Source: Pseudomonadota bacterium
GTDB taxonomy: Bacteria > Pseudomonadota > Gammaproteobacteria > Pseudomonadales > Ketobacteraceae
Direction of reading: 5' to 3'
Length of the DNA: 64,000 bases
Assembly: GCA_052035295.1 (NCBI GenBank)
Contig: JBPOHS010000018.1
Coordinates: 1-64,000 of the forward strand
Position 1 is the stretch's first letter. Each line of letters begins with the position of its first letter. Below, piece after piece: positions 7,812 to 56,333 of the stretch. Both the position numbers and the translations under genes were made by a program. The notes under the pieces were generated by a model. It was not told where the DNA came from. It was given only the letters and a program-made list of their open reading frames with translations, and ran no database searches.

Positions 7812-8480
7812 TCAGGCGTCTTCGTCGTCTTCATGATCGAGCAGGGCTTCCATGCGTCTGCGGCGCAGGAAATACAGCAGCCCCAGTCCACCTATCCCAC
7901 CGAAGCCCCAGCTGCCGCCGGCACTGTCTTCTGCGTAATGGTGTTCTTCGGTGTAGGTCTCGCCATAGCTGTCGGAATCGTAGAACTGGCCTTCCAGCGG
8001 AATGGGTTCCTGGGCGCTGGTAACCAGTGTGTCGAGGTGTCCACTGCAGCAGGCATCGTACAAGTCGATACGCAGGCGGAAGTGATCGGCCGGGTAGTCA
8101 TCCATCAGGGTGATCATGTGGCTCTGGGCATCACTGTTGGAGTCGCCGTCGATGTAGAACGTCGGGCTGGTAAACAACTCGTGCAGGTTGCCGTTGCCGT
8201 CGACCAGTGACACCACGGTGTAGGCGTAAAGGCCGTAATCCGACAGGTCGTCGGCATCGTAGGTGACTTCGAAACGTGAATAATGCCCGTCGTGATCGTA
8301 GTCATCCAGCAGGTTGATTTCGGCTTCGTAAACGCTGATACCGTTGCTGGCGGAACGCGCGCTGTTCTGCGTCGGCTCCTGATACAGTTTGAATGTCGTC
8401 TGGGGAGTGCTTTCAGCAAAGGTCATTCCACTCATCAGGGTGAGCGAGGCGGCAGCAACAAAAGCTTTCAGGGTGTTCAT
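7812..8480 (-). CDS. secreted acidic low-complexity protein with a GlyGly-CTERM-like C-terminal tail
   Basis: There is a GGAGA RBS and a signal peptide (MNTLKAFVAAASLTLMSGMTFAES). The body is rich in Asp, Tyr and Gly, with D-x-D/DG repeats. The tail is GGSWGFGGIGGLGLLYFLRRRR followed by 13 acidic residues. Confidence 0.5.
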   Translation of the reverse strand: MNTLKAFVAAASLTLMSGMTFAESTPQTTFKLYQEPTQNSARSASNGISVYEAEINLLDDYDHDGHYSRFEVTYDADDLSDYGLYAYTVVSLVDGNGNLHELFTSPTFYIDGDSNSDAQSHMITLMDDYPADHFRLRIDLYDACCSGHLDTLVTSAQEPIPLEGQFYDSDSYGETYTEEHHYAEDSAGGSWGFGGIGGLGLLYFLRRRRMEALLDHEDDEDA

Positions 8481-12423: not shown

Positions 12424-12453
12424 GCCAAAGAAAGGGCCCTGCAAGCAGGGCCC
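12424..12453 (-). terminator. probable intrinsic terminator downstream of the beta-helix/cytochrome lipoprotein gene
   Basis: A 9-bp perfect stem, GGGCCCTGC-ttg-GCAGGGCCC (minus-strand sense), is followed by TTTCTTTGG. Confidence 0.4.
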
Positions 12454-12512: not shown

Positions 12513-15131
12513 TCAGTCGGTGCAGGTCGCGTCTGGCAGACTGTTGATCCAGGCTTCCAGCAGTTCGACGCCTTCGGCATGCGCGAGTCCACGTCCGACG
12601 GGTGGCATGCGATCGCCAGCGTCAGTGGTTTGCACGCGGTAGCGCATGATCGATTCGGCAGCGTTGCCCGGTACCACGTCATAACTCAGTGATCCACCAC
12701 CAAAGGCGACCGGACGACGACAGGCACCGTGGGCACTGCCATCACCATAAGGGCGCCAGTATTCCAGGAACAGCCCCGTATTGGAGGCGTTACCTTCGGG
12801 ACGGTGGCAATGCGAACAGTTGATATCGAGATAGCCTTTGGCCGTGTCCATCAATTCTTCGTCAGTCATGGTATCGAGGTCGGCGGCATTGGCATCGGTG
12901 TAGACGGGCACGGTCTCAATGGATTCCAGATCCCCCGGGACATCTTCAAGCCAACCTTCGTTAACCCAATGCGTCAGCTGGTTTTCGGTGGTGTCGCCGT
13001 AGTCGTAATCCTTGTTGAGGTGTCTGGCTTTCGGCCCGATCGGCGTGATGGCGCTGGAAGAGCCGCCGTCGGCAATCTGGTGACACTGTTTGCAGTTGTT
13101 GATTGACGGAACTGCATAGGTGAAATCGGTCGGCGTGCCGTCGAGCGTGATCGTCTTGTCGATGTTTTTGCCTGCCACTGTCAACACGGCATCGCTCTTC
13201 GACGCATTCCACACATAGGGCAGGGCAACCCAACCTGCTTCACGGTGTATCAGCAACCGTGTTTCCACGAGTTCCTCGCTGGTCTCGTCAACAGCGTTGG
13301 TGGCTGGCAGGGCAAAGGTTTTGACAATGACCGAGCCAACGGGGAAATCAACGACTTCCTGATCGCTGTAAGTGGCCGTGCCACCCGGTGGAACGAAGAT
13401 ATAGCGATATTTGTGGGAATAATCGGTAAACAACTGCGTGTTCAGATCGTACGGAATGCCGCCACTGCGCGCCGCCCCTTTGGGGTTGGTGGCATCGACA
13501 AACAAACGGTAGTTCGACAGGTTGTTGCAGTTGGTGGAAAGCAGTGCATCCCAGTTGACTTCGCTCGCTGTGCCAGCGGTGCAGAGGTTGGCATTCTCGC
13601 TGTCGGTGTCATCACCTGCGCCGAGATCGCCTTCATCGCTCAACGGATCGCCGCTGCCGCAGTTTCTGTGATTGTCATCAATACCGCAGCCGTGCATGTC
13701 CCCGCCGATGATAACGGCGTGAATGGGGAGCGGCGCTTGTGAGCAGTTCAGCAGATCTTCTTGCGGGTCTTCAATGAGCGCATCGCCATTGACGACATCC
13801 AGCGACGTTTCCAGATACTGACCAACACTGGCATCACCATTGTTCTGGAAGCAGACGTTGTCGCTGCCGTCTTCGGCAAGTGGAACCTCGGAGATACTAT
13901 CTTCAACGGTCTCCGCTCCCAGCGTGTTAAATAGTGCTTCAGCCGCACCATCATAGATAAGGGCTGGCATCGAACCACCGTCGCCAGTGTATCTCTCGAT
14001 GAGGTCTTCGATGAGGTAGCCGCGTGGATTGCTACCGCTATCACTGACATCGTTGTCATGCACATGCACGTTGCGCGGCAAGGGGCGCCAACCGTCTGCA
14101 ATGGCTTGACCCGGTTGGGCATAATTCGCCAGGAACACACCGAGGTCTGACTCGGCAATCAGGAAGCTGGCGATCGCCACGGCGAGGGTGTCGTGGTTTT
14201 TGATCTCGTTGCGGAAGATCTCGACATCCTTGGTGGACAGCACGATAACGCCAGTGCCGGGGGGCGTGATGTGAACGCCGGCCGGGTTGGAGCTTTGGTT
14301 GGCGAAATTGTCAGTGTTGTTGTCTGTGACTTCGTTGTCAAAAACACGGACACCGCTGCCGTAATTGTGGTTGCCGATCGGCAGGTCGAACACCAGGATG
14401 CCGCCGGTATTGCCGGTAGCGACGTTGTTGTAGACATCGGCATACATCGAGTTCTCGATTTCAATGCCGGCAACGTTTTCCTCGGCGGTATTGTTACGCA
14501 CGACGATATATCTTGACTGCCCAACGTAAACGCCTGCGTCAGCGGAACCGCGCACATAGCTGTTTTCGATCAGGACGTTCTGGCATTCCACTGGATACAG
14601 GCCGTAAGCGCCATTACCCGGATCCGGTTCACCCGCCCAGACCGTGCCAATGCGGTTGATATGAATCCCGTTCGAATTCTTGAGCTTTATCGCGTTGTTC
14701 TTGGCTTCGTTGACAGAGAAATCCTGCAACGTGATGCCAACGGCGTTCTCGATGAAAATACCGTCGGTGGCGACCGTGGCGTCCGCGTAATCCAGTACGG
14801 TTTCCTCGCGGCCGTAGCCTGCGATGGTGATGTTGCGCGCGATCAGCTGGTCGCCATCGGTATCACCGTCGAAGGTGAGCGTGGTGTTGAGCTTGAACGT
14901 GCCTTTGGGCAGGACAATGTAGTCTCCGCTTTTGGCTTCTATCAGGGCTTTGTTGATGTTTTCTCCGACATCCCCTTCCTTGGAAACATAGATTGCTCCC
15001 GTGGGAAAGCTGACGCCGTCGTCGTTGTCATTGCTGTCACCGCTTCCGCAGCTGATCAGCAGCGGAGTCTGAAGCGCAAGCAGCAGTGCTCCGTACTTGA
15101 GTTTGTGGTTGTGAGCCGGATTTGGTTTCAT
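12513..15131 (-). CDS. lipoprotein joining a right-handed parallel beta-helix region (about 600 aa) to a C-terminal domain with two CXXCH haem-binding motifs (putative c-type dihaem)
   Basis: The lipobox is LLISC|GSG. Repetitive beta-helix-type N/G/V-rich turns appear throughout (NAIKLKNSNGIHINR, GSADAGVYVGQSRYIVVRNN, TGNTGGILVFD...). CKQCH is encoded at 13080-13094 and CSHCH at 12804-12818, about 90 aa apart, followed by an MPP motif. Confidence 0.7.
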   Translation of the reverse strand: MKPNPAHNHKLKYGALLLALQTPLLISCGSGDSNDNDDGVSFPTGAIYVSKEGDVGENINKALIEAKSGDYIVLPKGTFKLNTTLTFDGDTDGDQLIARNITIAGYGREETVLDYADATVATDGIFIENAVGITLQDFSVNEAKNNAIKLKNSNGIHINRIGTVWAGEPDPGNGAYGLYPVECQNVLIENSYVRGSADAGVYVGQSRYIVVRNNTAEENVAGIEIENSMYADVYNNVATGNTGGILVFDLPIGNHNYGSGVRVFDNEVTDNNTDNFANQSSNPAGVHITPPGTGVIVLSTKDVEIFRNEIKNHDTLAVAIASFLIAESDLGVFLANYAQPGQAIADGWRPLPRNVHVHDNDVSDSGSNPRGYLIEDLIERYTGDGGSMPALIYDGAAEALFNTLGAETVEDSISEVPLAEDGSDNVCFQNNGDASVGQYLETSLDVVNGDALIEDPQEDLLNCSQAPLPIHAVIIGGDMHGCGIDDNHRNCGSGDPLSDEGDLGAGDDTDSENANLCTAGTASEVNWDALLSTNCNNLSNYRLFVDATNPKGAARSGGIPYDLNTQLFTDYSHKYRYIFVPPGGTATYSDQEVVDFPVGSVIVKTFALPATNAVDETSEELVETRLLIHREAGWVALPYVWNASKSDAVLTVAGKNIDKTITLDGTPTDFTYAVPSINNCKQCHQIADGGSSSAITPIGPKARHLNKDYDYGDTTENQLTHWVNEGWLEDVPGDLESIETVPVYTDANAADLDTMTDEELMDTAKGYLDINCSHCHRPEGNASNTGLFLEYWRPYGDGSAHGACRRPVAFGGGSLSYDVVPGNAAESIMRYRVQTTDAGDRMPPVGRGLAHAEGVELLEAWINSLPDATCTD

Positions 15132-15414: not shown

Positions 15415-18400
15415 TCAGCTTGCCTTGGCAAATACCGGTGGGGTGATGTAGTACTGATCCGGCAGCGTGATCAGGATAATGAAACCACGGAAATCGTCGG
15501 TCTCTGCACCCTGGTCGAGGATCAGGTCGATGCCGCCGCCCACCGAGATGAGGAATTGCTTGACCGCATCCATGCCGACACCGCGCCCCGACACTTCCGA
15601 TACCTGATCGGTGGTCGAGAAGCCGGAGGCGAAGATGTAATTGGCAATGGTGTCTGCGGGTGGGCGTGGTGCGTCAGCCGGGTACAGGCCGCGCTCGACG
15701 GCTTTCTCATAGATCTTGCTGAGGGCAAGGCCACGGCCGTTATCCAGCACGGCGATGGTGACCTTGCCTTCCTTGCAGGCCGTGTTGATCCACACCGTAC
15801 CTTGTTCGGGCTTGCCTTTGGCTATGCGTTCTTCGGGCGACTCGATGCCATGATCCATGGAATTGCGCAGCAAGTGCATGAAGATATTGCTCAGAATGCC
15901 ATGGGCTTCGCCGCGGATGTAAACATTGCCGTGGTTGACGACGATATTGGGTTCGGCACGACCGATTTCCTTGGCGAGGGAAGTGGCAGAATGAATGACA
16001 TCGCCGATCACATCACCAATGGTTTTGGCTTCGACCGAGGCCAGCATGTTGTAGGTTTCCCTCACTACGCTGGCAACGTTGGATGGCAGCTTCTCGCCGG
16101 ACAGCTCGGTAATCTTCTGCAGTAGTGCCGAGGCGTGTTGCTTGTCGATACGTACTGCCGGGCCACCGCTGGTGCCGCGCCCGAGTTTTTCCTTGAAGAT
16201 GGAGTTGTATCGGCTGATGACCTGTTCACCAGTTTCCAGTTCGGCCAGCAGTTGTTCTTTCTGCCACTCAGACTCGTCGTTCTTACGCAGCTGATCGTAG
16301 GTGTTTTCGATCTTGTGCACCGTTTCGGTGATGTGCTTGAGCCCGTAAGTGCGCGCGTTGCCCTTGACCGTGTGAATGTTGCGGAACAGCTCGGCAATCT
16401 TGTCTTTGTCTTTCTCTTCGGTTTCCTGAATGATGTTGCGGCACTGGTCGACAAAATGGTACGAACCATTGATGAACTCGTTGAACTTCTCGCCATCGAC
16501 GGCCAGGATTTCGCCGATCATCATCAGCTCTTGTTTCTGACCTTCGGCTTCCGCCTGCAAGGCTTTCAGTTCGGTGACGTCGCGTACAGTAACCATCAGT
16601 TTGGTCACGACATCGTTTTCGTCGGTGATTGGGTCCCAATCCAGTTCAAGCAACTTGTCCGACTTGCCGTCGAACTTGAGTGTCAGCTCTTTGGCCAGCA
16701 GGTGCGAGTTGAACTCGTACATCATCGAGTCTTCGCCCACAATCGAGGAAACCGACGTGGTGGCGGCGTCGATAACGTCGACGCTGAGTGTCGAGTTGCG
16801 GAACAGCAAATCCACGAAGTTGCGGTTCGCGATGTTCGGTGTTTCGAAAATCGTTTCCAGATACGCGGCATATTCGGGGTGTATCAGGCCACCTTCGATA
16901 ATCGTGAACAGGCCCTGGTGCATGTTCGAGAGCATGTTCGCGATATCTTCGTTTTTCTGCTTCAGGGCGGCAGTACGTTCCTCGACTTTTTTCTCCAGGT
17001 TGCGGTTGTGTTCTTCGATCACTTCCACCATGCGGATGTTCTTGATGGTTGTCACCAAAGAGACCGCCACCGATGACACGAACTCGTAATCGCTGTCGGC
17101 AAAGGCCACGTTCTTGGTGTCGCCTGAGAAGTTCATGACACCAATGAGTATGTCCTTGTCGACCAGGGGAACGCAGAGCAGGGCGCGCGGCTTGTCCTTT
17201 TCGCCGGCCACATAGTGTTTGTCCTTGCTGGTATCCTGCACGAATATCGCTTTTTTGGATTCTGCGGCGCGACCAATGATGCCCTGACCCATGGTGAACG
17301 TGATCGCGCGATGCTCGCCCTCGGTCGCCATCGGCGGCAGAAACGCCTTGGCTTCCAGTTCGTGCGTTTTATTGAACAGATAGACAGATCCCTGCTCGAT
17401 ACCGATCTTGTCGGCCATGGCATGCAGCACCTCATCCAGCGCGGTATTCTGATCGCGCGCAGCGGCAAGGGTGCCACCAATCTTGTTGAGCTTGGCCAGG
17501 TCGATCATCTTCTTACGAATGGCCAGACGCATGGAGTTGAAGTTCTGGGTCGCGAGAATGAACAGCACAATCATGATGGCGATCGTACTCTTGAAGCCGA
17601 AACTCAGGCTGTCGCTCAATTCGGTCTGCAAGCGCATGAAAGTGGTATCTGCCGCTGCGAGAAGGTCATCAAGGCCATTGACCGATTTGCCGACCGTGGT
17701 TTTGGATTCGTTCAGTTTGATCTTGGCGGTTTCAATTTGCGTCAGCTCTTCGCGTTTGAATGAGACTAATCCGGGTTCCGCGTTGATGCCCGACTCAAGC
17801 GCTTTCAGCATGTCTCGGCTATTGGCCACCAGCCCATCCTTGTCAAAGGTGTTCATGTACTGGTCCACCATGTCGAGGGAGCGGGTCGTATCAGACATGA
17901 CGTAGTTCATATCGTCGACGGCCGTGTCGAGACGCGCCAGATCCGATGTGCGCTGGATTTCCTGCACCGTTTTTGACATGTTCGAAAGATAGGAATCGGC
18001 CTGGTTGGCGTTGCCGGCGGCTACTTCCATGTCTTTCGTATGTTCTGGTGGCGCCTGGTAATAAACGATGTCCATGTAGGAGTTGCCGACGTCATCGGCT
18101 TTCTGGATCAGATCGGCGGCCGCGTCATCGGTTTTCTTTTTGGCAATCAATTGGGCCAGTTTGGCGTCAAACATGGCATTGACCGCGACCTTGTATTCCT
18201 CGTAATTCTTTTTGATATCAGCGACCTGATTGCGCATCGCTTCGTCGTCTTTGGCCAGTGCTTCAAGCTTGTTGAACACGTCACTGAACTCAGCAGCGCC
18301 TTTCTCGAAGTCGTCATGGTAGGGTTTGATTTCGTCCTCAGTCAGCGCGTTGTAACCCAGAGCGCTGACGTTGGCGAGCTTCAATAGTTGAATCTGCACC

Positions 18401-18564
18401 TGGTTTGCAACGCGCACCACCGGCACGGCAGTTTCCGAGACCCGTTTGTTCGAGTCGCTGATGTCGTTCAGGTTCCAGAGTGAGTTTGAACCCGAGATCG
18501 CCAACAGCAAAAGTATGATGGCAAATCCCAGCCCGACTTTTTGGTTAAAACTGAGGTTAAGCAT
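15415..18564 (-). CDS. membrane-bound chemosensory-type histidine kinase: periplasmic helical sensor (between two TM helices), GAF, HPt (CheA P1-like) and CheA-type HATPase; no P2 or P5/CheW-like domain
   Basis: 1049 aa. TM1 is VGLGFAIILLLLAISG and TM2 is STIAIMIVLFILA near residue 330. The GAF region is ITFTMGQGIIGRAAESKKAIFVQD...LLCVPLV. The HPt region is ELFRNIHTVKGNARTYGL. The CheA-like N box is HLLRNSMDHGIE, with DNGRGL and GRGVGMDAV. The protein ends about 40 aa after the G2 box. Confidence 0.75.
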   Translation of the reverse strand: MLNLSFNQKVGLGFAIILLLLAISGSNSLWNLNDISDSNKRVSETAVPVVRVANQVQIQLLKLANVSALGYNALTEDEIKPYHDDFEKGAAEFSDVFNKLEALAKDDEAMRNQVADIKKNYEEYKVAVNAMFDAKLAQLIAKKKTDDAAADLIQKADDVGNSYMDIVYYQAPPEHTKDMEVAAGNANQADSYLSNMSKTVQEIQRTSDLARLDTAVDDMNYVMSDTTRSLDMVDQYMNTFDKDGLVANSRDMLKALESGINAEPGLVSFKREELTQIETAKIKLNESKTTVGKSVNGLDDLLAAADTTFMRLQTELSDSLSFGFKSTIAIMIVLFILATQNFNSMRLAIRKKMIDLAKLNKIGGTLAAARDQNTALDEVLHAMADKIGIEQGSVYLFNKTHELEAKAFLPPMATEGEHRAITFTMGQGIIGRAAESKKAIFVQDTSKDKHYVAGEKDKPRALLCVPLVDKDILIGVMNFSGDTKNVAFADSDYEFVSSVAVSLVTTIKNIRMVEVIEEHNRNLEKKVEERTAALKQKNEDIANMLSNMHQGLFTIIEGGLIHPEYAAYLETIFETPNIANRNFVDLLFRNSTLSVDVIDAATTSVSSIVGEDSMMYEFNSHLLAKELTLKFDGKSDKLLELDWDPITDENDVVTKLMVTVRDVTELKALQAEAEGQKQELMMIGEILAVDGEKFNEFINGSYHFVDQCRNIIQETEEKDKDKIAELFRNIHTVKGNARTYGLKHITETVHKIENTYDQLRKNDESEWQKEQLLAELETGEQVISRYNSIFKEKLGRGTSGGPAVRIDKQHASALLQKITELSGEKLPSNVASVVRETYNMLASVEAKTIGDVIGDVIHSATSLAKEIGRAEPNIVVNHGNVYIRGEAHGILSNIFMHLLRNSMDHGIESPEERIAKGKPEQGTVWINTACKEGKVTIAVLDNGRGLALSKIYEKAVERGLYPADAPRPPADTIANYIFASGFSTTDQVSEVSGRGVGMDAVKQFLISVGGGIDLILDQGAETDDFRGFIILITLPDQYYITPPVFAKAS

Positions 18565-18722
18565 TCCTGCGTGTCCGTATTCAGTAGTGAAGAGTTACGG
18601 TGACAAAGACATTGATAGCCATCTATCAGATTAGACGATTAATTCGAAATTTCAGCCACAAAGTGCATGTTGGTGGGTGGCGTTTGTCGACGTGCGGTCA
18701 ATCGGGGGCGTCATAAACAAAC

Positions 18723-18742
18723 AACCCCGCCGAAGCGGGGTT
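18723..18742 (-). terminator. hairpin (possible attenuator or terminator) between cheY and the kinase gene
   Basis: An 8-bp perfect stem, AACCCCGC-ttcg-GCGGGGTT (minus sense), is followed by GTTTGTTTAT. The U-tract is weak. Confidence 0.3.
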
Positions 18743-18779
18743 GGTATTCGCAAAATGCGAAAGAAAAAACCAATGCTTA

Positions 18780-19148
18780 TCAGCCGGTTACCAGTTTCTG
18801 GATCGCACCCAGAGCGTTGGCACCATTGAATGGCTTCACGATCCAGCCTTTTACGCCAGCGGCTTTACCGCGGTTTTTCATGTTGGGATCATTTTCGGTG
18901 GTCAGCATGATGATGTTGACGTTCTGGTTGCCCAGTTCGCTGCGCACCTTCTCAACCATCGTCAAGCCATCCATGTTGGGCATGTTGACGTCAGAGATGA
19001 TCAGTTTCAGCTCGCGGTCAGCCTTGATTTTCGCAAGGCCATCCTTGCCGTCCACGGCGGTTTCCACATTAAAATTTTTCGATTTCAGGAAGGCGCTCAC
19101 TTCATTGCGGATTGCGGCGCTGTCATCAACTACGAGTATCTGGGCCAT
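18780..19148 (-). CDS. CheY-like single-domain response regulator
   Basis: 122 aa. All receiver residues are present: DD (VVDDS), the phospho-Asp (IISDVNMP), T (LTTE) and K (VKPF). Confidence 0.85.
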   Translation of the reverse strand: MAQILVVDDSAAIRNEVSAFLKSKNFNVETAVDGKDGLAKIKADRELKLIISDVNMPNMDGLTMVEKVRSELGNQNVNIIMLTTENDPNMKNRGKAAGVKGWIVKPFNGANALGAIQKLVTG

Positions 19149-19205
19149 TTTGAATTTCCTTCGTTGTCGCTTACCAACGGTTGATCATGTGCTGACGATT
19201 TGAGT

Positions 19206-20198
19206 TTAGAACATTTCCAGACATCCGCTCTCGACGAGTTCTTCCACGGTGTTTTCGTCCGCTTCCTGATACTCTTCGGGGTTCCAGCGAATGTTGAAGA
19301 CAAATTTCTGATAAAGGGTGACCGGCATCAGTTTGCCGAGTTTGTCCTTCAGGGTGTACTTGAAGCAAAGCTGAGAGCGATCCGTACCAAAGGAAATATA
19401 TTCCTTGTATTGGTTGACAGTGATGGGTACGAATATTTTTACAGTGCGTTCGTGATCGGGCGGGAACAGCGAAATCAGGCGGGTGCGCAAGCCGCCCCAG
19501 GCCTGATTGGAAATTTCACTGAGCATGCCCATGACATCACGAAAATCGATGTTTTCCGGGGGAATGGAGGTGCGCCCGTCTTCGATCAACGAAATCATCG
19601 GGACTTCTTCGGATTGCACCATCATGTAGCCGACAAACCAGGGCGATTCGACCGGGAGCAGGCTGAGAATGTCACCCCAGACCAATTTGTCTTTCACCAG
19701 GTACGGCAGGTCCATCGTTACTTCAATGTCATGGAACAATGACGCCAATGCGCTGGTGGTGACTTCTTCGATGCGGCGAATCAGTGAAATCGGGTATTCG
19801 GTGTCTGCCAGATACTGATCTACCAATGCTGTCAGCTTCGACATGTCCTCAAGGGTATAGGTGCCGGTAATGCATTTTTGTTGCTCTTCCGGAATATCCC
19901 CGAAAACCGTGCCATCTTCGAGGCGCATGAAGATCGGCAGTTCCTTGCGAACGCGCTTGATGCGTTGCGCCAGCTCAAATCCGTTGGTCAGGCCTTCCGC
20001 ACTGTCATGGCTTTTCTCTGACAGCAGGATCGCGCCGAGATCGGAATTGGTATACAGCATTTTCATGCTGGAATCGCTGGTTTGTTTGACACCGACCAGA
20101 CCGCTGGTTGCACAAAATTCCTTGAGCGCTATCTGGGCAGAAGGGTTTTCCTCAAATATAAGGACTTTGGAAACCAGTCTCTTTTCGAATCCTATCAT
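19206..20198 (-). CDS. hypothetical protein with an N-terminal degenerate receiver-like domain and a C-terminal CheC/CheX-like segment
   Basis: The preferred start is ATG 20198 (MIGFEK...). The track start at 20393 would overlap the upstream gene by 143 nt. The receiver-like fold has EE in place of DD (VLIFEEN) and no clear phospho-Asp. The C-terminal segment has EISNQAWGGLRTRLISLFPP, which aligns with ELSNSFCGNLKRMLQGTCPP in the neighbouring protein and fits the E-x2-N...P CheC/CheX signature. Confidence 0.45.
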   Translation of the reverse strand: MIGFEKRLVSKVLIFEENPSAQIALKEFCATSGLVGVKQTSDSSMKMLYTNSDLGAILLSEKSHDSAEGLTNGFELAQRIKRVRKELPIFMRLEDGTVFGDIPEEQQKCITGTYTLEDMSKLTALVDQYLADTEYPISLIRRIEEVTTSALASLFHDIEVTMDLPYLVKDKLVWGDILSLLPVESPWFVGYMMVQSEEVPMISLIEDGRTSIPPENIDFRDVMGMLSEISNQAWGGLRTRLISLFPPDHERTVKIFVPITVNQYKEYISFGTDRSQLCFKYTLKDKLGKLMPVTLYQKFVFNIRWNPEEYQEADENTVEELVESGCLEMF

Positions 20199-20250
20199 GT
20201 GCGTGCCATTTGGTAGTGAATGTGTCGGGGACAATGCCTGAGGAACCAAT

Positions 20251-20838
20251 TCAGAATAGTTCAAGCTCGCCGGAATTGTCGACTTCGCTCTCGGCTTCAA
20301 TATCCTGGTAATGCGGAAGTTTGAAGTCCTGCGGATCCTGCAGGGCGACGAATACGCTCGCACTGAAAATCGGGGGTTCGGAATAATCCGCAATGGCGCA
20401 GCGGTGCTGTTGGTGAGTCATCTTCAGCACGTTGTCCAGCGTCAGGCACGAACGGTCGAGCAAATTGGGCGTCGACATGCCGAGGGGAGGGCAGGTACCT
20501 TGCAGCATGCGTTTCAAATTGCCGCAGAAACTGTTGCTCAGTTCCAGCAGATAATCCAGATAAGCCGTTTCATCGAGGTCTTCTGCCTTGATGGAAAGCG
20601 CATCGGCGACAAACTGCTTCGTGGTCTTGTTCATGCTCAGGTGCAACAAGCACATGAGGCGGAATTTGAACGAGGAAATGGTCAGCACGATACAGTGATC
20701 GTTGACGATGCTGGTGAGTGAGTCGGCCGACTTGAAAGACCAGCTGGTATTCGGGGCGCAGGTCTTGAGCGTCTGCTCCAGCGATTTCTGCAGAATCTTG
20801 CCAAGCGCCAAACCAGTATCGTTATGGACCGTTGCCAT
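20251..20838 (-). CDS. CheC/CheX-family-like protein (putative CheY-P phosphatase)
   Basis: 195 aa. DYLLELSNSFCGN...PP matches D-x3-E-x2-N-(x)n-P of the CheC/CheX/FliY phosphatases. Its start is 3 nt after the MCP stop. Confidence 0.4.
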   Translation of the reverse strand: MATVHNDTGLALGKILQKSLEQTLKTCAPNTSWSFKSADSLTSIVNDHCIVLTISSFKFRLMCLLHLSMNKTTKQFVADALSIKAEDLDETAYLDYLLELSNSFCGNLKRMLQGTCPPLGMSTPNLLDRSCLTLDNVLKMTHQQHRCAIADYSEPPIFSASVFVALQDPQDFKLPHYQDIEAESEVDNSGELELF

Positions 20839-31957: not shown

Positions 31958-32957
31958 TTTTCGCCCCCTTTTCCGTTGGTCACCGGTACTGCGCGAGCGT
32001 CTGCCCTGGCAACCGCTTGCCGACCTGCCGACGCCGGTGTCGCCGTTGCCGATGGCGACCAACGCTTGGATAAAGCGCGACGATATCTCGCATCCTGAAT
32101 ATGGCGGCAACAAGATCCGCAAGCTGGAATTCATTCTGGCCGAGGCCCTGGCCAAAGGTGCCAAGCGCATCATAACGTTTGGAGCGACTGGCACCAATCA
32201 CGGCGTGGCAACCGCCATGATGTGCGCGCAAGCCGGTCTGGAATGCGAGATATTGTTGTTTGATCAGCCCGATTCAGCCACGGTGCGCGGCAACCAGAAA
32301 CTGATGCGCCACTACGGCGCCTCGTTGATATATTGCGGCAGTCTGGCCGCCACCGTCACGCGTTATTACTGCCACCCCGCGCGCATGCGTCGCGACGCTT
32401 ATTTCCTTTTCGCGGGGGGATCCAATGTGGCGGGTACCTTGGGGTTTGTGAATGCCGCCATGGAAGTCGTCGATCAGGTCGCGGCCAACCAGTTGCCCAT
32501 GCCTGAACAGATTGTGTGCCCGGTGGGGTCGAGCGCAACGCTCGCAGGCCTGACCCTGGGTTTCCAGTGGCTGAATCTTCCGGTGCAAGTCGTCGGAGTG
32601 CGCGTGGCGCCGTCTCATCTGGGGCCATTTGCGGCCTGTACGGTCGAAAGCGTAGCCCGGCTCATGGAAAAGACTCGCCATTCGACACAGAAAATGACAG
32701 ACAAGCGCTTGCCTGCGCCGATAACGCCGATATTGCTGGACCAGTATTACGGCAGTGGTTACGGCGAGGCCACGGTGGCGGGGAAGGCGGCGCAGCGCGC
32801 TTTCGATGTCGCCGGTTACAAGTTGGAACAGACTTATTCAGCCAAAGCAGCGGCCTGTTTTCTGGAACGGGCGGCCAGTACACCTGGCCCCGTGTTGTTC
32901 TGGAATACTTTCAACTCCCGATCGGTGGCGACGCTTACGCAATCCGTTGCGTCGTAA
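31947..32957 (+). CDS. PLP-dependent enzyme of the ACC deaminase / D-cysteine desulfhydrase family
   Basis: DDISHPEYGGNKIRKLEF is the lysine-containing PLP motif of this family. The protein is about 336 aa. ATG 31947 is preferred to the upstream GTG at 31884. Confidence 0.7.
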   Translation: MPTDFRPLFRWSPVLRERLPWQPLADLPTPVSPLPMATNAWIKRDDISHPEYGGNKIRKLEFILAEALAKGAKRIITFGATGTNHGVATAMMCAQAGLECEILLFDQPDSATVRGNQKLMRHYGASLIYCGSLAATVTRYYCHPARMRRDAYFLFAGGSNVAGTLGFVNAAMEVVDQVAANQLPMPEQIVCPVGSSATLAGLTLGFQWLNLPVQVVGVRVAPSHLGPFAACTVESVARLMEKTRHSTQKMTDKRLPAPITPILLDQYYGSGYGEATVAGKAAQRAFDVAGYKLEQTYSAKAAACFLERAASTPGPVLFWNTFNSRSVATLTQSVAS

Positions 32958-35823
32958 TCGGACTATTGCCCAGGTATTGTTCGAGCGTCTGGTAGAACAC
33001 TGGCCGTTCGATCGGTTTGCCAAGAATTGCGGTGAATCCCGCCTGCTCGTAGCTGGCGGTTTCGCCCTTGATAACGTTGGCAGTAAGGGCAATGATGGGC
33101 ACCGTGAAACCTTGTTTCCGCAGGGTTTGGGTGGCTTCGATACCTGACAGCACCGGCATCTTGATATCCATGAGAATGAGATCGAACGGCTGCTTCTGCA
33201 GCGCATCGACGGCTTCCTGACCGTTGTTGACGACCGTCAGCTGCACGCCGCAATCCCGCAGCATGAGTGCCACCAGACGTTGGCTGTCCTGGTTATCGTC
33301 GGCATAAAGAACACGGCCACTCAGTTTCGGTACCTGAATTTGCGTTGTCGCGGCAGATTCAGAGGCGCGATTGGCGTCATCGAGCGACGCAACCCATTCT
33401 CGCCGGTTGGGAACACCGCCCCCTACATACACCGTGAAACAGCTGCCTTTGCCCGGCTGGCTGGTGACTTCAATCGTGCCACCCATTTTTTCCGCCAGTT
33501 GTTTCGAAATGACCAAGCCCAACCCGGTGCCGCCGAATTGACGGGCGGTGGACGCTTCTGCCTGGGAATAGGATTGGAACAGCTTGCCCAGTTGTTCTTC
33601 GGTCAATCCCGTGCCGGTATCGATGACTGAAAACCGCGTCAGTTGACGGGCTTCGTCCCAGCCGACATCGACAGTAACGCCGCCGTCGCGGGTGAACTTG
33701 ATGGCGTTACTGCAAAGATTGAGCAGAATCTGCTTGAGACGCGTCGGGTCCGCCGTGATCTGGTTGGGCAATGGGAAATGGTATTCGATATTGAACGACA
33801 GATTCTGGTTCTTGGCTTTCTGCGCAAAATAGGAATACACATCCTTCATCAGCACATAGGGATTCACAGGCATTTTTTCGACGTCGACGATCGAGGCTTC
33901 CACCTTCGAGAAATCGAGGATGTCGTTGATGATGTTGAGAAGGTGATGACTGCTGCGAATGACAGTATCAATCGCTTGCTGTTCTTCGACATCGGTGAGC
34001 GTGTTGTCGTTGAGCGATTCGCTGTAACCGATGATGGCTGTCAGCGGCGTCCGGATTTCGTGGCTCATGTTGGCCAGAAAATCACCTTTGGCTGCCGCAG
34101 ACGCTGTAGCCAGTTCCTTTTCCAGTTTGTCGATTTCGCGATCCTGCTCGGCGCGTTCGCGCTCCTTGCGCTCGGTGATGTCGGTCAGCGAGCCTTCGAT
34201 ATGGCTGGGCAGACCGTCGGCACCGCGTATCATTTGCGCGAAATGGTCTACCCACATGGTTTTTCCATCCTTGCGGGTGTAGCTGACTTCCATTTGCAGC
34301 CGACCGCTCCAGGCCAATTGCTGAAACTGCGGCTCGCCGCCGGGGAAACAGAGATCCACGGCTTCATTACCGGCACGGCGGAGTGCTTCCACCGAGTCAT
34401 AGCCAAGCAGTTTTGCCATCGCCGGATTTGCGCTTACAAACTTGCCCGAAGTCGACATGCGGTACATGCCTTCAATGGCGTTGTTGAACGTGGAACGGAA
34501 GCGCGCCATGTTCTGTATGGCACGTTCGTTGGCTTCCAGTGCTTCGCGTTGCAGACGCTTGATACGATCGGCCAGTGAAAATGAAATCATGACCGCACCG
34601 GTGAGAAACCCGATCGGCGCGCCGGCGAGGTATATCGGCGCTGAGGGCAAAATTTTCAGCAATGCCAGCGCCTGGGTTGCGCCGCCGGCCACAGTGAGAA
34701 ACCAGCCAATTGAAAAATAGACCGCGTTTTCGTTTTTCCTGGACCAGCTGTAAAAACTGATGCCGAGTATCAAGACCAGGCCGAAAAAGGTGAATCCGCT
34801 CAGCCAGGTGCTGACCACATTTTTGTCTATCAGAAAACTGGTCAACAGATAGATCAGCACGAAAGACTGCAAAAAACGCAGGAAATGATCGATGCGACGG
34901 TGATAGCGCGGTGTATCGAGGAAGTTGCGCGTGAACATGATGATCATCCACCAGGTCGACCAGATCAACGGCGATGTGTAGGTGGTCTTGGCAAACGTGC
35001 GGGAGTCTTCGAACAGGGTGAGCCCGTGTCCCATTTCGATGAATTCAAAACTGGTGATCCCGAATAGATAAAGCACGAAATACAGGTAGCTGACATCGCG
35101 TACTGAAAAATACACGAACAGGTTGTAGAGCATGAGTATCAACATGCCGCCAAAGAACACGCCGTAAATCAGCTCTTGGTCCGCAACGTTTTCGATGAAC
35201 TTCTTCGGTGTCCACAAATTGACGGGAAGAATCAACGCGTTATCACTTTTGATACGCAGATAGTAGGTCTGCTTCTGATCGAGATAAGTCGTGATCGGGA
35301 ACACACTGTTGGAGTGGCGCACTTTCCGCGCGGAATAAGGTTTGCGCAGGTCCACTGATTCGCGGAGGTAGGTGCCGTCCTTGTTGGGGGAGTAGAGTTC
35401 GCAGGATTGAAGCTGGGAACGTGCGACCTCCAGGTACCAGCTCTTTTCCTGATCCTGGTTGTTGTTCCAGGAAGGATAATCGATGGTGATCGCCAGCCAG
35501 AATACCGAGTTGGTCAAGCCAAAGTTATGGGCGTCTGTTTTTCCTTCGTTCCAGGTGAACTGGTCCTGGATGTCGGGGCGCTGGATATCGTCAATGGTGA
35601 GCTTGCCGTCCTTGTCTTCCAGGGTCCTGACGACACCGTTGAGGGCATAGTGTTCGCCATTCCTGTAAAGCACCGCTTCGGGGCTACCGTCAAGATGCGG
35701 GACGAGGGTGTTTTCGCTGAACGCGTCGAACAAGGGCAACGACGCATGCACCCCTGCCGTGGAGAAAAGGGATGCCAGTGCCAGAAGCACAAGCAACAGA
35801 TAACGGCGGTGCTGATGGTGCAT
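32935..35823 (-). CDS. 7TMR-DISM hybrid sensor histidine kinase (7TMR-DISMED2 / 7TM / PAS / HisKA / HATPase / REC), with a canonical H-box
   Basis: A signal peptide is followed by an extracellular domain with NSVFPIT and YLRIK blocks. The 7TM region begins YGVFFGGMLILMLYNLF. The H-box is MSHEIRTPL, the N box is LLNLCSNAIKFT, the G boxes are DTGTGL and GGTGLGLVIS, and the REC is FDLILMDIKMP. The 3' end overlaps the convergent PLP-enzyme gene by 23 nt. Confidence 0.85.
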   Translation of the reverse strand: MHHQHRRYLLLVLLALASLFSTAGVHASLPLFDAFSENTLVPHLDGSPEAVLYRNGEHYALNGVVRTLEDKDGKLTIDDIQRPDIQDQFTWNEGKTDAHNFGLTNSVFWLAITIDYPSWNNNQDQEKSWYLEVARSQLQSCELYSPNKDGTYLRESVDLRKPYSARKVRHSNSVFPITTYLDQKQTYYLRIKSDNALILPVNLWTPKKFIENVADQELIYGVFFGGMLILMLYNLFVYFSVRDVSYLYFVLYLFGITSFEFIEMGHGLTLFEDSRTFAKTTYTSPLIWSTWWMIIMFTRNFLDTPRYHRRIDHFLRFLQSFVLIYLLTSFLIDKNVVSTWLSGFTFFGLVLILGISFYSWSRKNENAVYFSIGWFLTVAGGATQALALLKILPSAPIYLAGAPIGFLTGAVMISFSLADRIKRLQREALEANERAIQNMARFRSTFNNAIEGMYRMSTSGKFVSANPAMAKLLGYDSVEALRRAGNEAVDLCFPGGEPQFQQLAWSGRLQMEVSYTRKDGKTMWVDHFAQMIRGADGLPSHIEGSLTDITERKERERAEQDREIDKLEKELATASAAAKGDFLANMSHEIRTPLTAIIGYSESLNDNTLTDVEEQQAIDTVIRSSHHLLNIINDILDFSKVEASIVDVEKMPVNPYVLMKDVYSYFAQKAKNQNLSFNIEYHFPLPNQITADPTRLKQILLNLCSNAIKFTRDGGVTVDVGWDEARQLTRFSVIDTGTGLTEEQLGKLFQSYSQAEASTARQFGGTGLGLVISKQLAEKMGGTIEVTSQPGKGSCFTVYVGGGVPNRREWVASLDDANRASESAATTQIQVPKLSGRVLYADDNQDSQRLVALMLRDCGVQLTVVNNGQEAVDALQKQPFDLILMDIKMPVLSGIEATQTLRKQGFTVPIIALTANVIKGETASYEQAGFTAILGKPIERPVFYQTLEQYLGNSPITTQRIA

Positions 35824-35890
35824 GATGATCTGAACCCTGAAGGGGGTGCCCGCCAGCGGGCACAAGCTTCCTTTTTAAATCGCTACCGGT

Positions 35891-42307: not shown

Positions 42308-42465
42308 TCCCTTTACCAGCCTTGGCTCTGGCAACCGATTTGCCCTGTGTAGCCAGACAGTTACCGTTTAAGTGTAGGCGAGTTTACCGGTCGTGCCGGG
42401 ATGGCGTCGGAAATCAGAAAACTACTTGAAAAACAGGGAATTGGTGAAGTGCAGTGGCTGTTGAT

Positions 42466-50087: not shown

Positions 50088-50440
50088 GCGGGCCTTTGCT
50101 GCTGGCATGCAACTTGCCTTGTCATAAACGTGTTGTACTGCCTTGAGCTCGGTATGACAAAAACCCGTTGGAACGGGTCGACGTATTTGATAACTTGGCA
50201 GGGTGGTCATCGTGCGCAGGGACGCTACGACACACCTCCTGTCAGGTAGGTGGCGGCATGATCAGGCATTTGTCAGAGCAGTATTTCGCAGGGAAGGATG
50301 GAATAATGAGATTCACGAACGGCAGCAGGAGTGAGAATGCCGCCATGCAGTTCAATGGTGCGTTTCCCGCCAACGTTCAATCCGAGGCTTGCCCAGATCA
50401 ACCGACCTGTCCACCACAACTTACTAGCCAGCAGCCGACT

Positions 50441-51601
50441 ATGCGCATCCTGTTCCTGATCAATTCGCTGGTGGGTGGGGGTGCCGAACGGGTGTTTTCG
50501 GGTGTCGTCAATCGTATCCTTCCGTATCTGCCTGCAGCAGAGGTTGAGGTGGTGCTGCTCGACAGTGAAACCCAGCGCTACCGGATTTCCGCGCCGGTCA
50601 AGGTGACCTGTCTTGGCAGTAATGGTTCGCTTTTCGATAGCTATCGTCGCCTGAAACGCTATATGAGTGGCAACCGTCCCGACCTGGTGATCAGTTTTCT
50701 GACGCGCGCGAATTACCTTGCCATCGTCTTTTCCCGGCGGTTTCGCTACCGCTGTATCATCAGCGAACGCAGCAACCCCTCTGCCTCCAGTGGTTCCGGC
50801 ATGATGGGGTGGGCCAGGAAGCAGTCGGTGCGTACGCTGTTTCCGCGTGCGGATCATGTCATCGCGGTCTCAGAGGGCATCAAGAACAGCCTCATCAAGG
50901 ATTTTTCCCTGTTACCGCAGGCCATCACGGTCATCCCCAATCCGTGCGATATCGTCGAAATTGAACGTCAGGGCGAGCAGCCCATTGATCTGCACAGCGA
51001 TCCGCGTTTGCAGCACGGCTACATCATCGCAGTGGGCAGACTGGTCGAATGCAAGCGTTACGACGTATTGATCCGAGCGTACGCCGGCAGGAAATTCACG
51101 CTGCCATTGGTGATACTCGGCGAAGGCCCGCTGCTCGGTGAACTGCAACAGCTGGCGCAAACACTGGGTGTGGCGGAGCGCGTGATCTTTCCTGGCTTTT
51201 TGGCCAACCCCTATGCCGCCATGGCGCGCGCGTCGGTGTTCGTGCTCAGCTCCGAATTCGAAGGCTTTCCCAACAGTCTGATCGAGGCCATGGGGCTCGG
51301 GCTGCCGGTCATTTCCTCCAACTGTCACCACGGGCCGGGCGAAATCCTTGATGAGTCTACCACCCCGGACATACACGGTGTTCATTTCGGCAAGCACGGT
51401 GTGCTGGTGCCTGTCGCCGACGTCGCTGCACTGAGCGACGCGCTTGCGCAGGTGCTCGATGACACGGAGATTCGCGCCGTCCTGGGTAAAAAGGCTTATG
51501 CGCGCGCTGCCGAATTTGGCGTGAGCGCGGCGATGTCGCGTTACGCCGCCGTCATTCAGCAGCAATTGGCGTTGTTGACACCAGTAACGACCAAAGAGTA
51601 A
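50441..51601 (+). CDS. family-4 (GT-B) glycosyltransferase
   Basis: It begins with MRILFLINSLVGGGAERV, typical of GT4 N-termini. The C-terminal blocks are EGFPNSLIEAMGLGLPVIS and E-x7-E. The track ORF begins 273 nt earlier at 50168, but that extension is low-complexity. Confidence 0.7.
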   Translation: MRILFLINSLVGGGAERVFSGVVNRILPYLPAAEVEVVLLDSETQRYRISAPVKVTCLGSNGSLFDSYRRLKRYMSGNRPDLVISFLTRANYLAIVFSRRFRYRCIISERSNPSASSGSGMMGWARKQSVRTLFPRADHVIAVSEGIKNSLIKDFSLLPQAITVIPNPCDIVEIERQGEQPIDLHSDPRLQHGYIIAVGRLVECKRYDVLIRAYAGRKFTLPLVILGEGPLLGELQQLAQTLGVAERVIFPGFLANPYAAMARASVFVLSSEFEGFPNSLIEAMGLGLPVISSNCHHGPGEILDESTTPDIHGVHFGKHGVLVPVADVAALSDALAQVLDDTEIRAVLGKKAYARAAEFGVSAAMSRYAAVIQQQLALLTPVTTKE

Positions 51602-51610
51602 CCCGCTATC

Positions 51611-54949: not shown

Positions 54950-54996
54950 CTCTGGACTGTTGCCTTGCCTCTCTGGGCTGCCGTACGCGGCGGGCG

Positions 54997-56277: not shown

Positions 56278-56333
56278 GAGCGTTACTCACATGCGCAGGC
56301 CAATGGGGCAAACGGCAACAGCGTTTTGACACA

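Follow-up and report, generated by a model that had tools for sequence, protein, structure and literature searches.

The longest open reading frame of the region under study, within the 64-kb stretch of DNA analysed here (the window), lies on the minus strand and translates into a product of 872 amino acids, and NCBI contains a protein identical to it (P0001). The features of the locus are as follows:

12424 to 12453, minus strand: intrinsic-terminator-like hairpin, consisting of a stem-loop (12434-12453) and a T-rich tail, 60 nt past the stop codon
12513 to 15131, minus strand: complete gene for a predicted lipoprotein with a TIGR03805-TIGR03806 fusion, 872 aa plus stop (from the list of reading frames, the translation and NCBIfam matches over cut-off)
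12537 to 13532, minus strand: dihaem module of the SO2930 family (TIGR03806), aa 534-865, about 340 aa
12600 to 12614, minus strand: DRMPP segment, aa 840-844, containing Met842
12804 to 12818, minus strand: CSHCH, putative attachment motif of haem 2, aa 772-776, 92 aa after CKQCH
13062 to 13499, minus strand: beta-sheet subdomain, about aa 545-690, with the predicted haem 1 and a likeness to the fold of cytochromes P460/c'-beta
13080 to 13094, minus strand: CKQCH, putative attachment motif of haem 1, aa 680-684, aligning with C136-H140 of N. europaea cytochrome P460 (NeP460)
13320 to 13322, minus strand: codon of the invariant Lys604, aligning with the haem cross-linking Lys70 of NeP460
13533 to 13946, minus strand: Cys-rich linker or cap region, aa 396-533, with C427, C463 and C517, to which C535 is added at the opening of the next module
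13947 to 14957, minus strand: right-handed parallel beta-helix domain (TIGR03805), aa 59-395
15048 to 15131, minus strand: signal peptide with the lipobox L-I-S-C, aa 1-28, with Cys28 as the predicted lipidated residue and Gly at +2

The translation agrees with the positions that an initial annotation of this DNA had given for the reading frame and for the CKQCH, CSHCH and DRMPP segments, and the spacing of the two CXXCH motifs, estimated there at about 90 residues, comes to 92. The protein carries signals for both export and lipidation. The lipobox already recognised by the initial annotation (LLISC) ends on Cys28 and follows a positive charge and then a hydrophobic stretch, and its cysteine is invariant in 49 fused relatives (alignment A1); the AF2 model has pLDDT values below 50 across residues 1-37. 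Solely from this lipobox, a surface location of the protein would be expected. The terminator-like hairpin, likewise noted before, is formed by an 8-bp stem with 7 G-C pairs (12453-12434, minus strand), and the T-rich tail was also seen. Because of this hairpin downstream and because the upstream gene ends in a hairpin and T-run of its own (about 15391-15361, spotted by eye), the gene looks monocistronic. Its downstream neighbour in the window codes for a UvrD-like helicase. No second copy of the module was detected by tblastn in the 64 kb, and an unannotated reading frame of 395 aa (19206-20393, minus strand) was tested as a stand-alone haem-module paralogue and ruled out. There are no ccm genes within the window, a finding that does not extend to the remainder of the genome.

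Residues 59-395 matched positions 1-313 of the 314 positions of TIGR03805 (beta_helix_1) with 404.1 bits against a cut-off of 141.5, and residues 534-865 matched positions 1-314 of 314 of TIGR03806 ("SO2930 family diheme c-type cytochrome") with 385.2 bits against a cut-off of 313.3. The initial annotation had mentioned a TIGRFAMs beta-helix family that pairs or fuses with a C-terminal domain, and these two models, whose cut-offs are both exceeded, stand for that pair. Pairing or fusion with TIGR03806 and a signal peptide or lipobox, which go with TIGR03805, were both found here. The protein is a new member of a known family, already catalogued and without a characterised function, and the fusion is therefore not itself a discovery. 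Our literature search on SO_2930/SO_2931, TIGR03805/6 and a link between P460 and beta-helices returned listings of cytochromes and tables of deletion strains, and no functional study was found.

The family is widely distributed. The TIGR03806 module was matched at E ≤ 1e-3 by 6072 cluster representatives (50% identity), and the beta-helix and haem modules occur fused or in adjacent genes, in constant order, in at least 594 species of many phyla, the range including aerobic heterotrophs (Halioglobus, Marinobacter, Hyphomonas, Bacteroidota, Planctomycetota and Acidobacteriota). All homologous haem modules found contain exactly two CXXCH motifs each. The genome context in relatives, which the initial annotation had proposed to check, was analysed at 86 loci that span many phyla. 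There, a single fused gene or two neighbouring genes on one strand encode the two modules, and the beta-helix always comes first. Because of this arrangement, a functional linkage of the two modules of the Rosetta-stone type seems indicated. No conserved partner gene emerged across the 86 loci from clustering of the reading frames, inspection of tightly linked same-strand neighbours and Pfam annotation. The neighbours recur only within lineages: 10 loci have an AraC regulator and two Vibrio a FadL-like channel, besides generic SDR and ABC genes. A functional inference from operon structure was therefore rejected, and the gene context does not point to a substrate.

The N-terminal module was expected to form a beta-helix of about 600 residues, and the fold was borne out by TIGR03805, AF2 and Foldseek, whereas the length has to be corrected to about residues 45-400. 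Matches to the Pfam models Beta_helix and NosD fall into the same module, and AF2 predicts regular short strands for residues 71-365, mostly with pLDDT above 90. Foldseek aligned the model with many solved beta-helices at a probability of 1.00, including AlgE4, an alginate epimerase/lyase, GH87, PL6 and RbmB. Searching the PDB with a profile of the beta-helix gave matches with E values of 1e-4 or higher, which cover the N-terminal cap and two rungs. A comparison of 77 domains revealed a conserved cleft over successive rungs, lined by K149, W165, Y176, Y179, D198, Y202, Q205, E224, E226, N227, R262, N271 and N275. Clefts with such acidic, basic and aromatic residues bind extended substrates in polysaccharide lyases, hydrolases and epimerases, and by analogy this one would be of the same kind. 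No CAZy-type family HMM reached its threshold with this protein, and its likeness to PL1, PL6, PL9, GH28, GH87 and AlgE is at fold level only. The linker that follows contains cysteines which probably form disulfides, judging from the invariance of C427, C463, C517 and C535 among the 49 fused relatives of alignment A1. The linker occurs only in the fused subfamily of the gammaproteobacteria; apart from the Shewanella, Ferrimonas and Halioglobus-type fusions, its HMM (LINK) picks up just a few others.

The C-terminal domain with two CXXCH motifs had been put at about 210 residues. Both motifs are there, but the domain comprises about 340 residues and opens with a beta-sheet subdomain that precedes the first CXXCH. 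The full-length AF2 model has a pLDDT of 83.6, and the model of residues 515-872 reached a pLDDT of 89.4 and a pTM of 0.88, with a cytochrome-like predicted structure, as the initial annotation had anticipated. Conservation of the CXXCH motifs in orthologues, for which its reading called, was also found: C680, C683 and H684 of the first and C772, C775 and H776 of the second motif are 100% conserved in 78 diverse domains, and the two invariant sites can be predicted to serve as c-type haem attachment sites. The same 78 domains share K604 (100%), M842 (99%) and P843 (at least 97%), the inner His774 of CSHCH (97%) and His851 (92%), and further conserved positions are K574, R576, E623, R625 and Y672. 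Met842 is the sole conserved methionine and is likely to be the sixth ligand of haem 2. This haem would then be a low-spin His/Met relay within a class-I cytochrome c domain of the PSCyt1 type: the Pfam model PSCyt1 (PF07635) matched 22 of 31 members, with a best E value of 1.3e-6, and scored this protein with 18.9 bits, below its gathering threshold of 22. The reading as a dihaem c-type cytochrome thus stands with the TIGR03806 match and the predicted structure, but instead of a plain tandem the module would consist of a P460/c'-beta-like domain and, after it, one of the PSCyt1-type class I.

No match was obtained on searching the PDB with the full protein sequence, and profile searches of the PDB with the haem module and with the haem-1 subdomain gave CXXCH-level matches only and no solved homologue. 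Two cytochrome identities were considered for the module and rejected. A CCP/MauG identity (PF03150) was dismissed on the outcome of the CCP_MauG domain match, and one of the MtrC/OmcA type was dismissed on sub-threshold PF22113 scores (11-15 bits vs. a cut-off of 30), the presence of two haems only and the lack of porin or decahaem neighbours.

For the subdomain around haem 1, four methods consistently pointed to cytochromes P460/c'-beta, but the statistics of this link are weak. The Pfam model P460 (PF16694) scored 18.1 bits with the isolated C-terminal module and 14.4 bits with the full protein, both below the gathering threshold of 27, and gave matches at E < 1 in 15 of 31 relatives (best E 5.9e-6); hhalign against P460 returned a probability of 25%. 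Foldseek found nothing significant in the PDB for the C-terminal model (best E 0.27), with P460/c'-beta entries recurring near the top. A profile-profile alignment placed R576, P581, F596, G599, K604 and the CxxCH on R44, P50, F62, G65, K70 and C136xxCH140 of NeP460, whose sequence was checked against 2je2/2je3 and agrees with them at 100% identity. Colinearity extends from the position of Arg44 past Lys70 as far as the CXXCH, five positions that are invariant or nearly so in the P460 and SO2930-type families coincide, and Lys604 lies within a motif shared with NeP460, F-x-x-G-[ST]-V-x-V-K. Shuffled and reversed controls scored well below the real alignment. We therefore suggest, at the weak level that these statistics allow, that the haem-1 subdomain is related to cytochromes P460/c'-beta, with Lys604 probably occupying the cross-link position and the invariant Arg576 that of the distal Arg44.

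The roles of the P460 residues were taken from a 2025 review (PMC11928373), according to which the distal carboxylate is Glu96 in NeP460 and Asp102 in McP460, and the P460 of Nitrosomonas sp. AL212, which is inactive with NH2OH, has Ala131 in this column. Our protein has an invariant Ala648 in the column of the distal carboxylate, like Ala131 of AL212, with an Asp/Glu one residue earlier, in a part of the alignment that is of low confidence; the distal carboxylate of NH2OH-oxidising P460s was accordingly not found there. Because the same review holds the fold to be unique to P460 and c'-beta (PMC11928373), a link between P460 and SO2930-type modules is not established knowledge. Since no conserved Met or His could be assigned as a sixth ligand and Lys604 and Arg576 align with P460 positions, haem 1 is most likely open or high-spin and would be a ligand-binding or catalytic site. 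His774 or His851 could serve haem 1 as a sixth ligand, which would make it an ordinary electron-transfer haem.

Taken together, we propose that the protein is a Sec/Lol-exported lipoprotein which acts as a self-contained redox enzyme of the cell envelope, an interpretation that we give an even chance of being right. The beta-helix would capture or position a substrate, redox chemistry would take place at haem 1, and haem 2 would exchange electrons with soluble carriers of the periplasm, so that no dedicated partner genes would be called for. A more specific version sees the SO2930-type haem module as a third, unrecognised branch of P460/c'-beta, in which a Lys-cross-linked or open catalytic haem 1 is wired to a His/Met haem 2 and partnered by a beta-helix; this is a tentative extension with a minority chance of being correct.

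The weak statistics just described could also mean that the likeness to P460 has arisen by chance or convergence and that the module belongs with the conventional dihaem cytochromes or with peroxidase-like proteins, in which Lys604 and Arg576 merely bind haem propionates. The sub-threshold Pfam score, the hhalign probability and the lack of a significant Foldseek match in the PDB would fit this explanation, as would the class-I-like segment PIGPKA after haem 1, which aligns with cytochrome c552/c555, and faint CCP_MauG matches in 5 of 31 members. Yet four independent methods indicating the same family, the colinear alignment, the far lower scores of the controls and the five shared invariant or near-invariant positions argue against coincidence, and we regard this explanation as unlikely. 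Similarly unlikely, in our estimate, is a glycan-active lyase, hydrolase or epimerase whose cytochrome feeds a separate oxidative partner or senses redox conditions. The analogue for such a system is provided by the X183 c-type cytochrome domains on carbohydrate-binding proteins, which reduce LPMOs. Against it stand the missing CAZy-family match, the absence of PUL, LPMO or sugar-uptake genes both from the window and as conserved neighbours over the 86 loci, and an invariant polar pocket (K574, R576, K604, E623, R625) that exceeds the needs of a relay.

The catalogued role of the Shewanella relative SO_2931 suggests a simple electron-transfer cytochrome of the outer membrane instead, serving extracellular electron transfer with the beta-helix as a mere scaffold or spacer. 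SO_2931 is catalogued in papers as a putative outer-membrane dihaem cytochrome of unassigned function, counted as one of five such cytochromes in the outer membrane of S. oneidensis and deleted in "delta-omc-all" strains, and the non-Asp residue at +2 of the lipobox of our protein would suit the same role. However, there are only two haems and no mtr-like porin or decahaem neighbour, the family occurs in aerobic heterotrophs without known metal respiration, and it is obligately tied to a beta-helix with invariant cleft residues. Moreover, when a strain had lost all outer-membrane cytochromes, SO_2931 alone reportedly failed to bring back metal reduction, and we consider the conduit role distinctly improbable. 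A NosD-like periplasmic factor for metallocentre assembly or copper handling appears very improbable: Pfam NosD matched with an E value of 4e-9 and the repeat type of the beta-helix is shared with NosD, but TIGR04247 gave 25.8 bits against a cut-off of 300, no nosZ, nosF, nosY or nosL was found in the window or the related loci, and NosD proteins do not carry a haem module. On this score and cluster context, membership in NosD (TIGR04247/PF05048) was rejected.

With the proposed envelope redox enzyme, a very large and phylogenetically broad family without assigned function gains a concrete and testable biochemical hypothesis, namely that it combines a P460/c'-beta-like catalytic haem, including the conserved lysine for the cross-link, with an electron relay of its own and a beta-helix dedicated to binding the substrate. 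If it is true, the P460 fold would extend past the two families now thought to hold it, and nitrogen-oxide or other oxidative reactions would be indicated that have been overlooked in common heterotrophs of sea and soil. There would then also be reason to class SO_2931 as an enzyme instead of an electron-conduit cytochrome. Should the module indeed represent a third P460 branch, the family, whose clusters at 50% identity number in the thousands and come from aerobic heterotrophs in many phyla, might be an overlooked class of enzymes. These could possibly transform hydroxylamine or NO (a source of N2O) outside the nitrifiers, or oxidise a substrate bound by the beta-helix in a new haem-dependent reaction.

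The TIGR03805-TIGR03806 group includes the fused SO_2931 and the stand-alone SO_2930 of Shewanella, and SO_2931 is likely to be the Shewanella orthologue of our protein, as suggested by family naming and synteny. Shewanella and Ferrimonas have the same fusion at 55-60% identity, and the SO_2931/SO_2930 system shares the order of modules, the two invariant CXXCH motifs and the Met, the lipoprotein signal and scores over cut-off with both models. In these genera, a stand-alone paralogue of the haem module and a regulator of the AraC type come after the fusion gene, whereas neither is present in this window.

Compared with carbohydrate-active beta-helices (the mannuronan C5-epimerases AlgE4/AlgE6, the alginate epimerase/lyase 8jaz, PL6, GH87, RbmB and phi29 gp12), the fold is the same, and here too conserved residues of acidic, basic and aromatic character line up in rows from rung to rung, but the identity is 10-17% and none of them carries haem domains. 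The haem 2 region has the pattern of the PSCyt1 "Planctomycete cytochrome C" family (CxxCH, G-L-x-L, V-P-G-x-x-x-x-S, M-P and W-I), whose domain usually sits N-terminally in the large PSD1/PSCyt2 proteins of planctomycetes and here forms the C-terminal half of a dihaem module. FoxE (5mab), the putative Fe(II) oxidase of Rhodobacter ferrooxidans SW2, is also a dihaem c-type cytochrome, but it consists of two class-I domains without a beta-sheet subdomain or beta-helix partner and shows no match to our protein at sequence level. The members of the P460/c'-beta superfamily (PF16694; 2je3, 6amg, 6hiu, 7s5o, 7ead) are stand-alone, single-haem proteins of about 135-200 aa and mostly homodimers, whereas the domain described here is larger, with at least about 18 residues inserted and additional strands, and shares its chain with a second cytochrome domain as well as being coupled to a beta-helix.

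The dominant ORF of the region was called on the minus strand at 12513–15131 and translates into a protein of 872 aa. Its N-terminus (MKPNPAHNHKLKYGALLLALQTPLLIS-C28-GSGDSNDNDDG) consists of a classical lipoprotein signal and a low-complexity tether, so that the protein carries signals for export and lipidation. Because the +2 residue is Gly, it is probably anchored in the outer membrane. The translation placed the CKQCH motif of haem 1 (aa 680–684, nt 13080–13094), the CSHCH motif of haem 2 (aa 772–776, nt 12804–12818) and the DRMPP segment (aa 840–844) exactly where the initial annotation had located them. A hairpin with a T-rich tail (12453–12434, minus strand; seven of eight stem pairs G–C) is present 60 nt past the stop codon, and the upstream gene for a CheA-like kinase has its own terminal hairpin and T-run, as judged by eye. 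Together with a gap of 283 nt on the upstream side, these flanking hairpins make the studied gene look monocistronic.

Features of the window accompanying the studied gene
7812–8480, minus strand: 222-aa protein with a match to NF038116 (choice-of-anchor H, Sden1266 domain); this family is associated with sorting signals and little characterised
15415–18564, minus strand: 1049-aa kinase of unusual architecture directly upstream of the studied gene, matching CheA models at E about 1e-40; the order of its domains (N-terminal 4HB_MCP/CHASE3-like sensor, GAF, Hpt, CheA-type HATPase) therefore defines a membrane-sensor CheA-like hybrid
18667–19203, plus strand: 178-aa ORF with no match in Pfam or NCBIfam
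19206–20393, minus strand: 395-aa ORF, likewise with no match in Pfam or NCBIfam; compared as a candidate relative of the SO2930 haem module and found unrelated
32935–35865 and 39410–42334, minus strand: a pair of paralogous hybrid histidine kinases (each about 975 aa), about 3.5 kb apart, both with 7TMR-DISMED2 and 7TMR-DISM_7TM sensor modules
50168–53278, plus strand: GT4 glycosyltransferase, then a 555-aa protein with a GINT1_N-like domain, which is named for a eukaryotic glucosamine inositolphosphorylceramide transferase and is unusual in a bacterium
53393–58256, minus strand: conserved stress-response trio prkA / DUF444 (yeaH) / spoVR (ycgB)

The protein belongs to an already named and very common family. 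In NCBIfam, TIGR03805 (beta_helix_1) matched aa 59–395 with 404 bits (cut-off 141.5), and TIGR03806 (SO2930 family diheme c-type cytochrome) matched aa 534–865 with 385 bits (cut-off 313.3). The Pfam matches are limited to generic Beta_helix and NosD and a sub-threshold Cytochrom_C. Because both NCBIfam matches lie far over the curated cut-offs, the protein does belong to the TIGRFAM beta-helix family that pairs or fuses with a conserved C-terminal domain, to which the initial annotation had pointed. The initial annotation was accurate in its observation and essentially right in its interpretation; only the module boundaries needed correction, as the helix covers about aa 45–400 and the haem module about 340 rather than 210 aa, with a Cys-rich linker (aa 400–533) between them.

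A word-indexed search yielded 1009 relatives at E ≤ 1e-5, among them one identical NCBI protein, one of 73% identity, and fusions from Ferrimonas, Shewanella and Endozoicomonas with 52–60% identity. When one genome per species was scanned, at least 594 species had relatives; the taxa among the matches listed include Gamma- and Alphaproteobacteria, Bacteroidota, Planctomycetota, Acidobacteriota, Oligoflexia, Binatia and Hydrogenedentota. An exhaustive phmmer query restricted to the haem module returned 6072 cluster-50 representatives at E ≤ 1e-3 (3749 at E ≤ 1e-10), comprising both stand-alone (about 350–430 aa) and fused forms (about 770–1130 aa).

Domain HMMs were then applied to the ORFs called in 86 loci (L-numbers below). 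In these, the modules were either fused or encoded by adjacent genes on the same strand, the beta-helix always coming first, and every haem module contained exactly two CXXCH motifs, the helix proteins none. This obligate co-occurrence is strong Rosetta-stone evidence for a joint function of the modules. No other conserved neighbour was found in these loci, the next commonest families being generic SDRs (15 loci), AraC regulators and ABC ATPases (10 each); tightly linked same-strand neighbours are lineage-specific, and there are no dedicated partner genes. Ferrimonas and Shewanella carry, downstream of the fusion gene, a stand-alone haem-module paralogue (L001 10687–11862, L002 10757–11959, L008–L012), which has two CXXCH motifs, its own lipobox and 54% identity between the genera, and then an AraC-type regulator; neither gene occurs in the 64-kb window.

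Several loci deviate in their surroundings or architecture. In Vibrio comitans and V. hangzhouensis (L006 6649–7974, L013 6472–7764), the fusion gene is preceded on its own strand, at a distance of 27–42 bp, by a gene for a FadL/Toluene_X-family outer-membrane channel, a possible lineage-specific operon partner. An Alcanivoracaceae MAG (L057 5246–9382) carries one beta-helix gene followed by two tandem haem-module genes, each with two CXXCH motifs. Longer variants of 1075–1318 aa (protein relatives P0053, P0058 and P0060; L073 6798–10373) partly contain duplicated beta-helix regions, and in one the helix is preceded by three DUF7151 repeats. In a Halioglobus-like genome of 4.2 Mb (L007 11373–17206), the fusion gene has genes for a 1342-aa PA14/glyoxal-oxidase-like/Kelch protein, a protein with a YtkA domain and a dihaem peroxidase (CCP_MauG) nearby; among the seven loci for which annotation was precomputed, only this one shows such a local extracytoplasmic redox-enzyme cluster.

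The AF2 model of the full protein (mean pLDDT 83.6, pTM 0.70) is disordered only at aa 1–37 and 504–512. The helix exhibits a conserved cleft: across 77 domains, K149, W165, N173, Y176, Y179, D198, Y202, Q205, N219, E224, E226, N227, D232, N236, N241, R262, N266, N271 and N275 are invariant and lie on consecutive rungs (motifs SADAGVYVGQS, VAGIEIENS, NTGGILVFDLP and RVFDNEVTDNNTDNF), a pattern typical of an active-site or binding cleft. Foldseek matched the helix to the epimerases AlgE4 and AlgE6, alginate epimerase/lyase, GH87, PL6, RbmB and the phi29 gp12 tailspike (E 1e-8 to 1e-4) at 10–17% identity. A helix-only profile gave only weak matches to PDB sequences, the best being phi29 gp12 (E 1.4e-4), whose acidic residues align with D198, E224 and E226 in this weak match.

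The haem module was modelled with higher scores (aa 515–872, pLDDT 89.4, pTM 0.88) and contains two invariant haem-attachment sites. Conservation of at least 97% among 78 modules applies to K574, R576, P581, P597, G599, K604, F606, E623, T624, R625, W634, A648, Y672, P675, C680, C683, H684, C772, H774, C775, H776, M842 and P843. Because Met842 is the sole conserved Met, located 66 residues past the haem 2 CXXCH in sequence surroundings that resemble PSCyt1 (a profile that matched 22 of the 31 members with a best E of 1.3e-6), haem 2 is most likely His/Met-ligated. For haem 1, these modules offer no conserved Met, and H774 (97%) and H851 (92%) are the only candidate distal histidines.

The subdomain around haem 1 shows a statistically weak resemblance to cytochrome P460. 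The Pfam profile Cytochrome_P460 gave matches under the gathering threshold in 15 of the 31 family members (best E 5.9e-6), at two colinear places, profile positions 14–56 covering the strand region ending at Lys604 and positions 102–119 aligning with the haem 1 CXXCH in one member. Using hhalign, the family subdomain aligned with cytochrome P460 of N. europaea (NeP460; sequence identical to PDB 2je2/2je3) at E 5.7e-4, and with a 25-sequence P460 alignment at E 7.8e-4 over 89 columns with a probability of 25%. The real alignment reached 30.0, compared to 16.2 for the reversed profile and at most 19.5 for 30 column-shuffled profiles.

Equivalent positions in the studied protein and NeP460 (hhalign)
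R576: Arg44
P581: Pro50
F596: Phe62
G599: Gly65
K604: Lys70, the haem cross-linking lysine
C680xxCH: C136xxCH140

Both proteins share the local motif F-x-x-G-[ST]-V-x-V-K (VDFPVGSVIVK vs. GEFRDGTVTVK). From these alignments, we slightly favour homology of the haem 1 subdomain to P460; a functional P460-like or open-coordination haem 1 appears possible, with the balance tilted against it. In the proposed mechanism, the beta-helix would bind a substrate, haem 1 would serve as ligand-binding or catalytic centre in a P460/c′-beta-like pocket putatively lined by K574, R576, K604, E623 and R625, haem 2 would act as His/Met relay, and soluble periplasmic carriers would exchange electrons with the protein. 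The substrate might be a glycan or other extended polymer, as suggested only by the fold, or nitrogen oxides or hydroxylamine, for which only the analogy with P460 speaks.

Rival readings have to be weighed against this mechanism. One regards the protein as an EET-only cytochrome. The family name, the synteny in Shewanella and a 206-member cluster including S. putrefaciens, S. xiamenensis and S. decolorationis suggest that the fused orthologue corresponds to SO_2931 and the stand-alone paralogue to SO_2930. [quoted passage not shown] Another reading is a CAZyme with an accessory cytochrome. The remaining ones take the protein for a NosD-like factor or for an ordinary dihaem cytochrome or peroxidase.

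As a discovery, the case is modest, as the family is already named and common and an identical protein is already present in NCBI; it draws its value from the family's open function and the testable P460-like hypothesis. A 2025 review regards the P460/c′-beta fold as unique to those two families (PMC11928373), and a relation of the haem module to them, if real, would be previously undescribed. Aligned with the catalytic distal carboxylate of P460 (Glu96), the studied family has an invariant Ala648, preceded by Asp or Glu one position before, and in this Ala it resembles the NH2OH-inactive AL212 enzyme.
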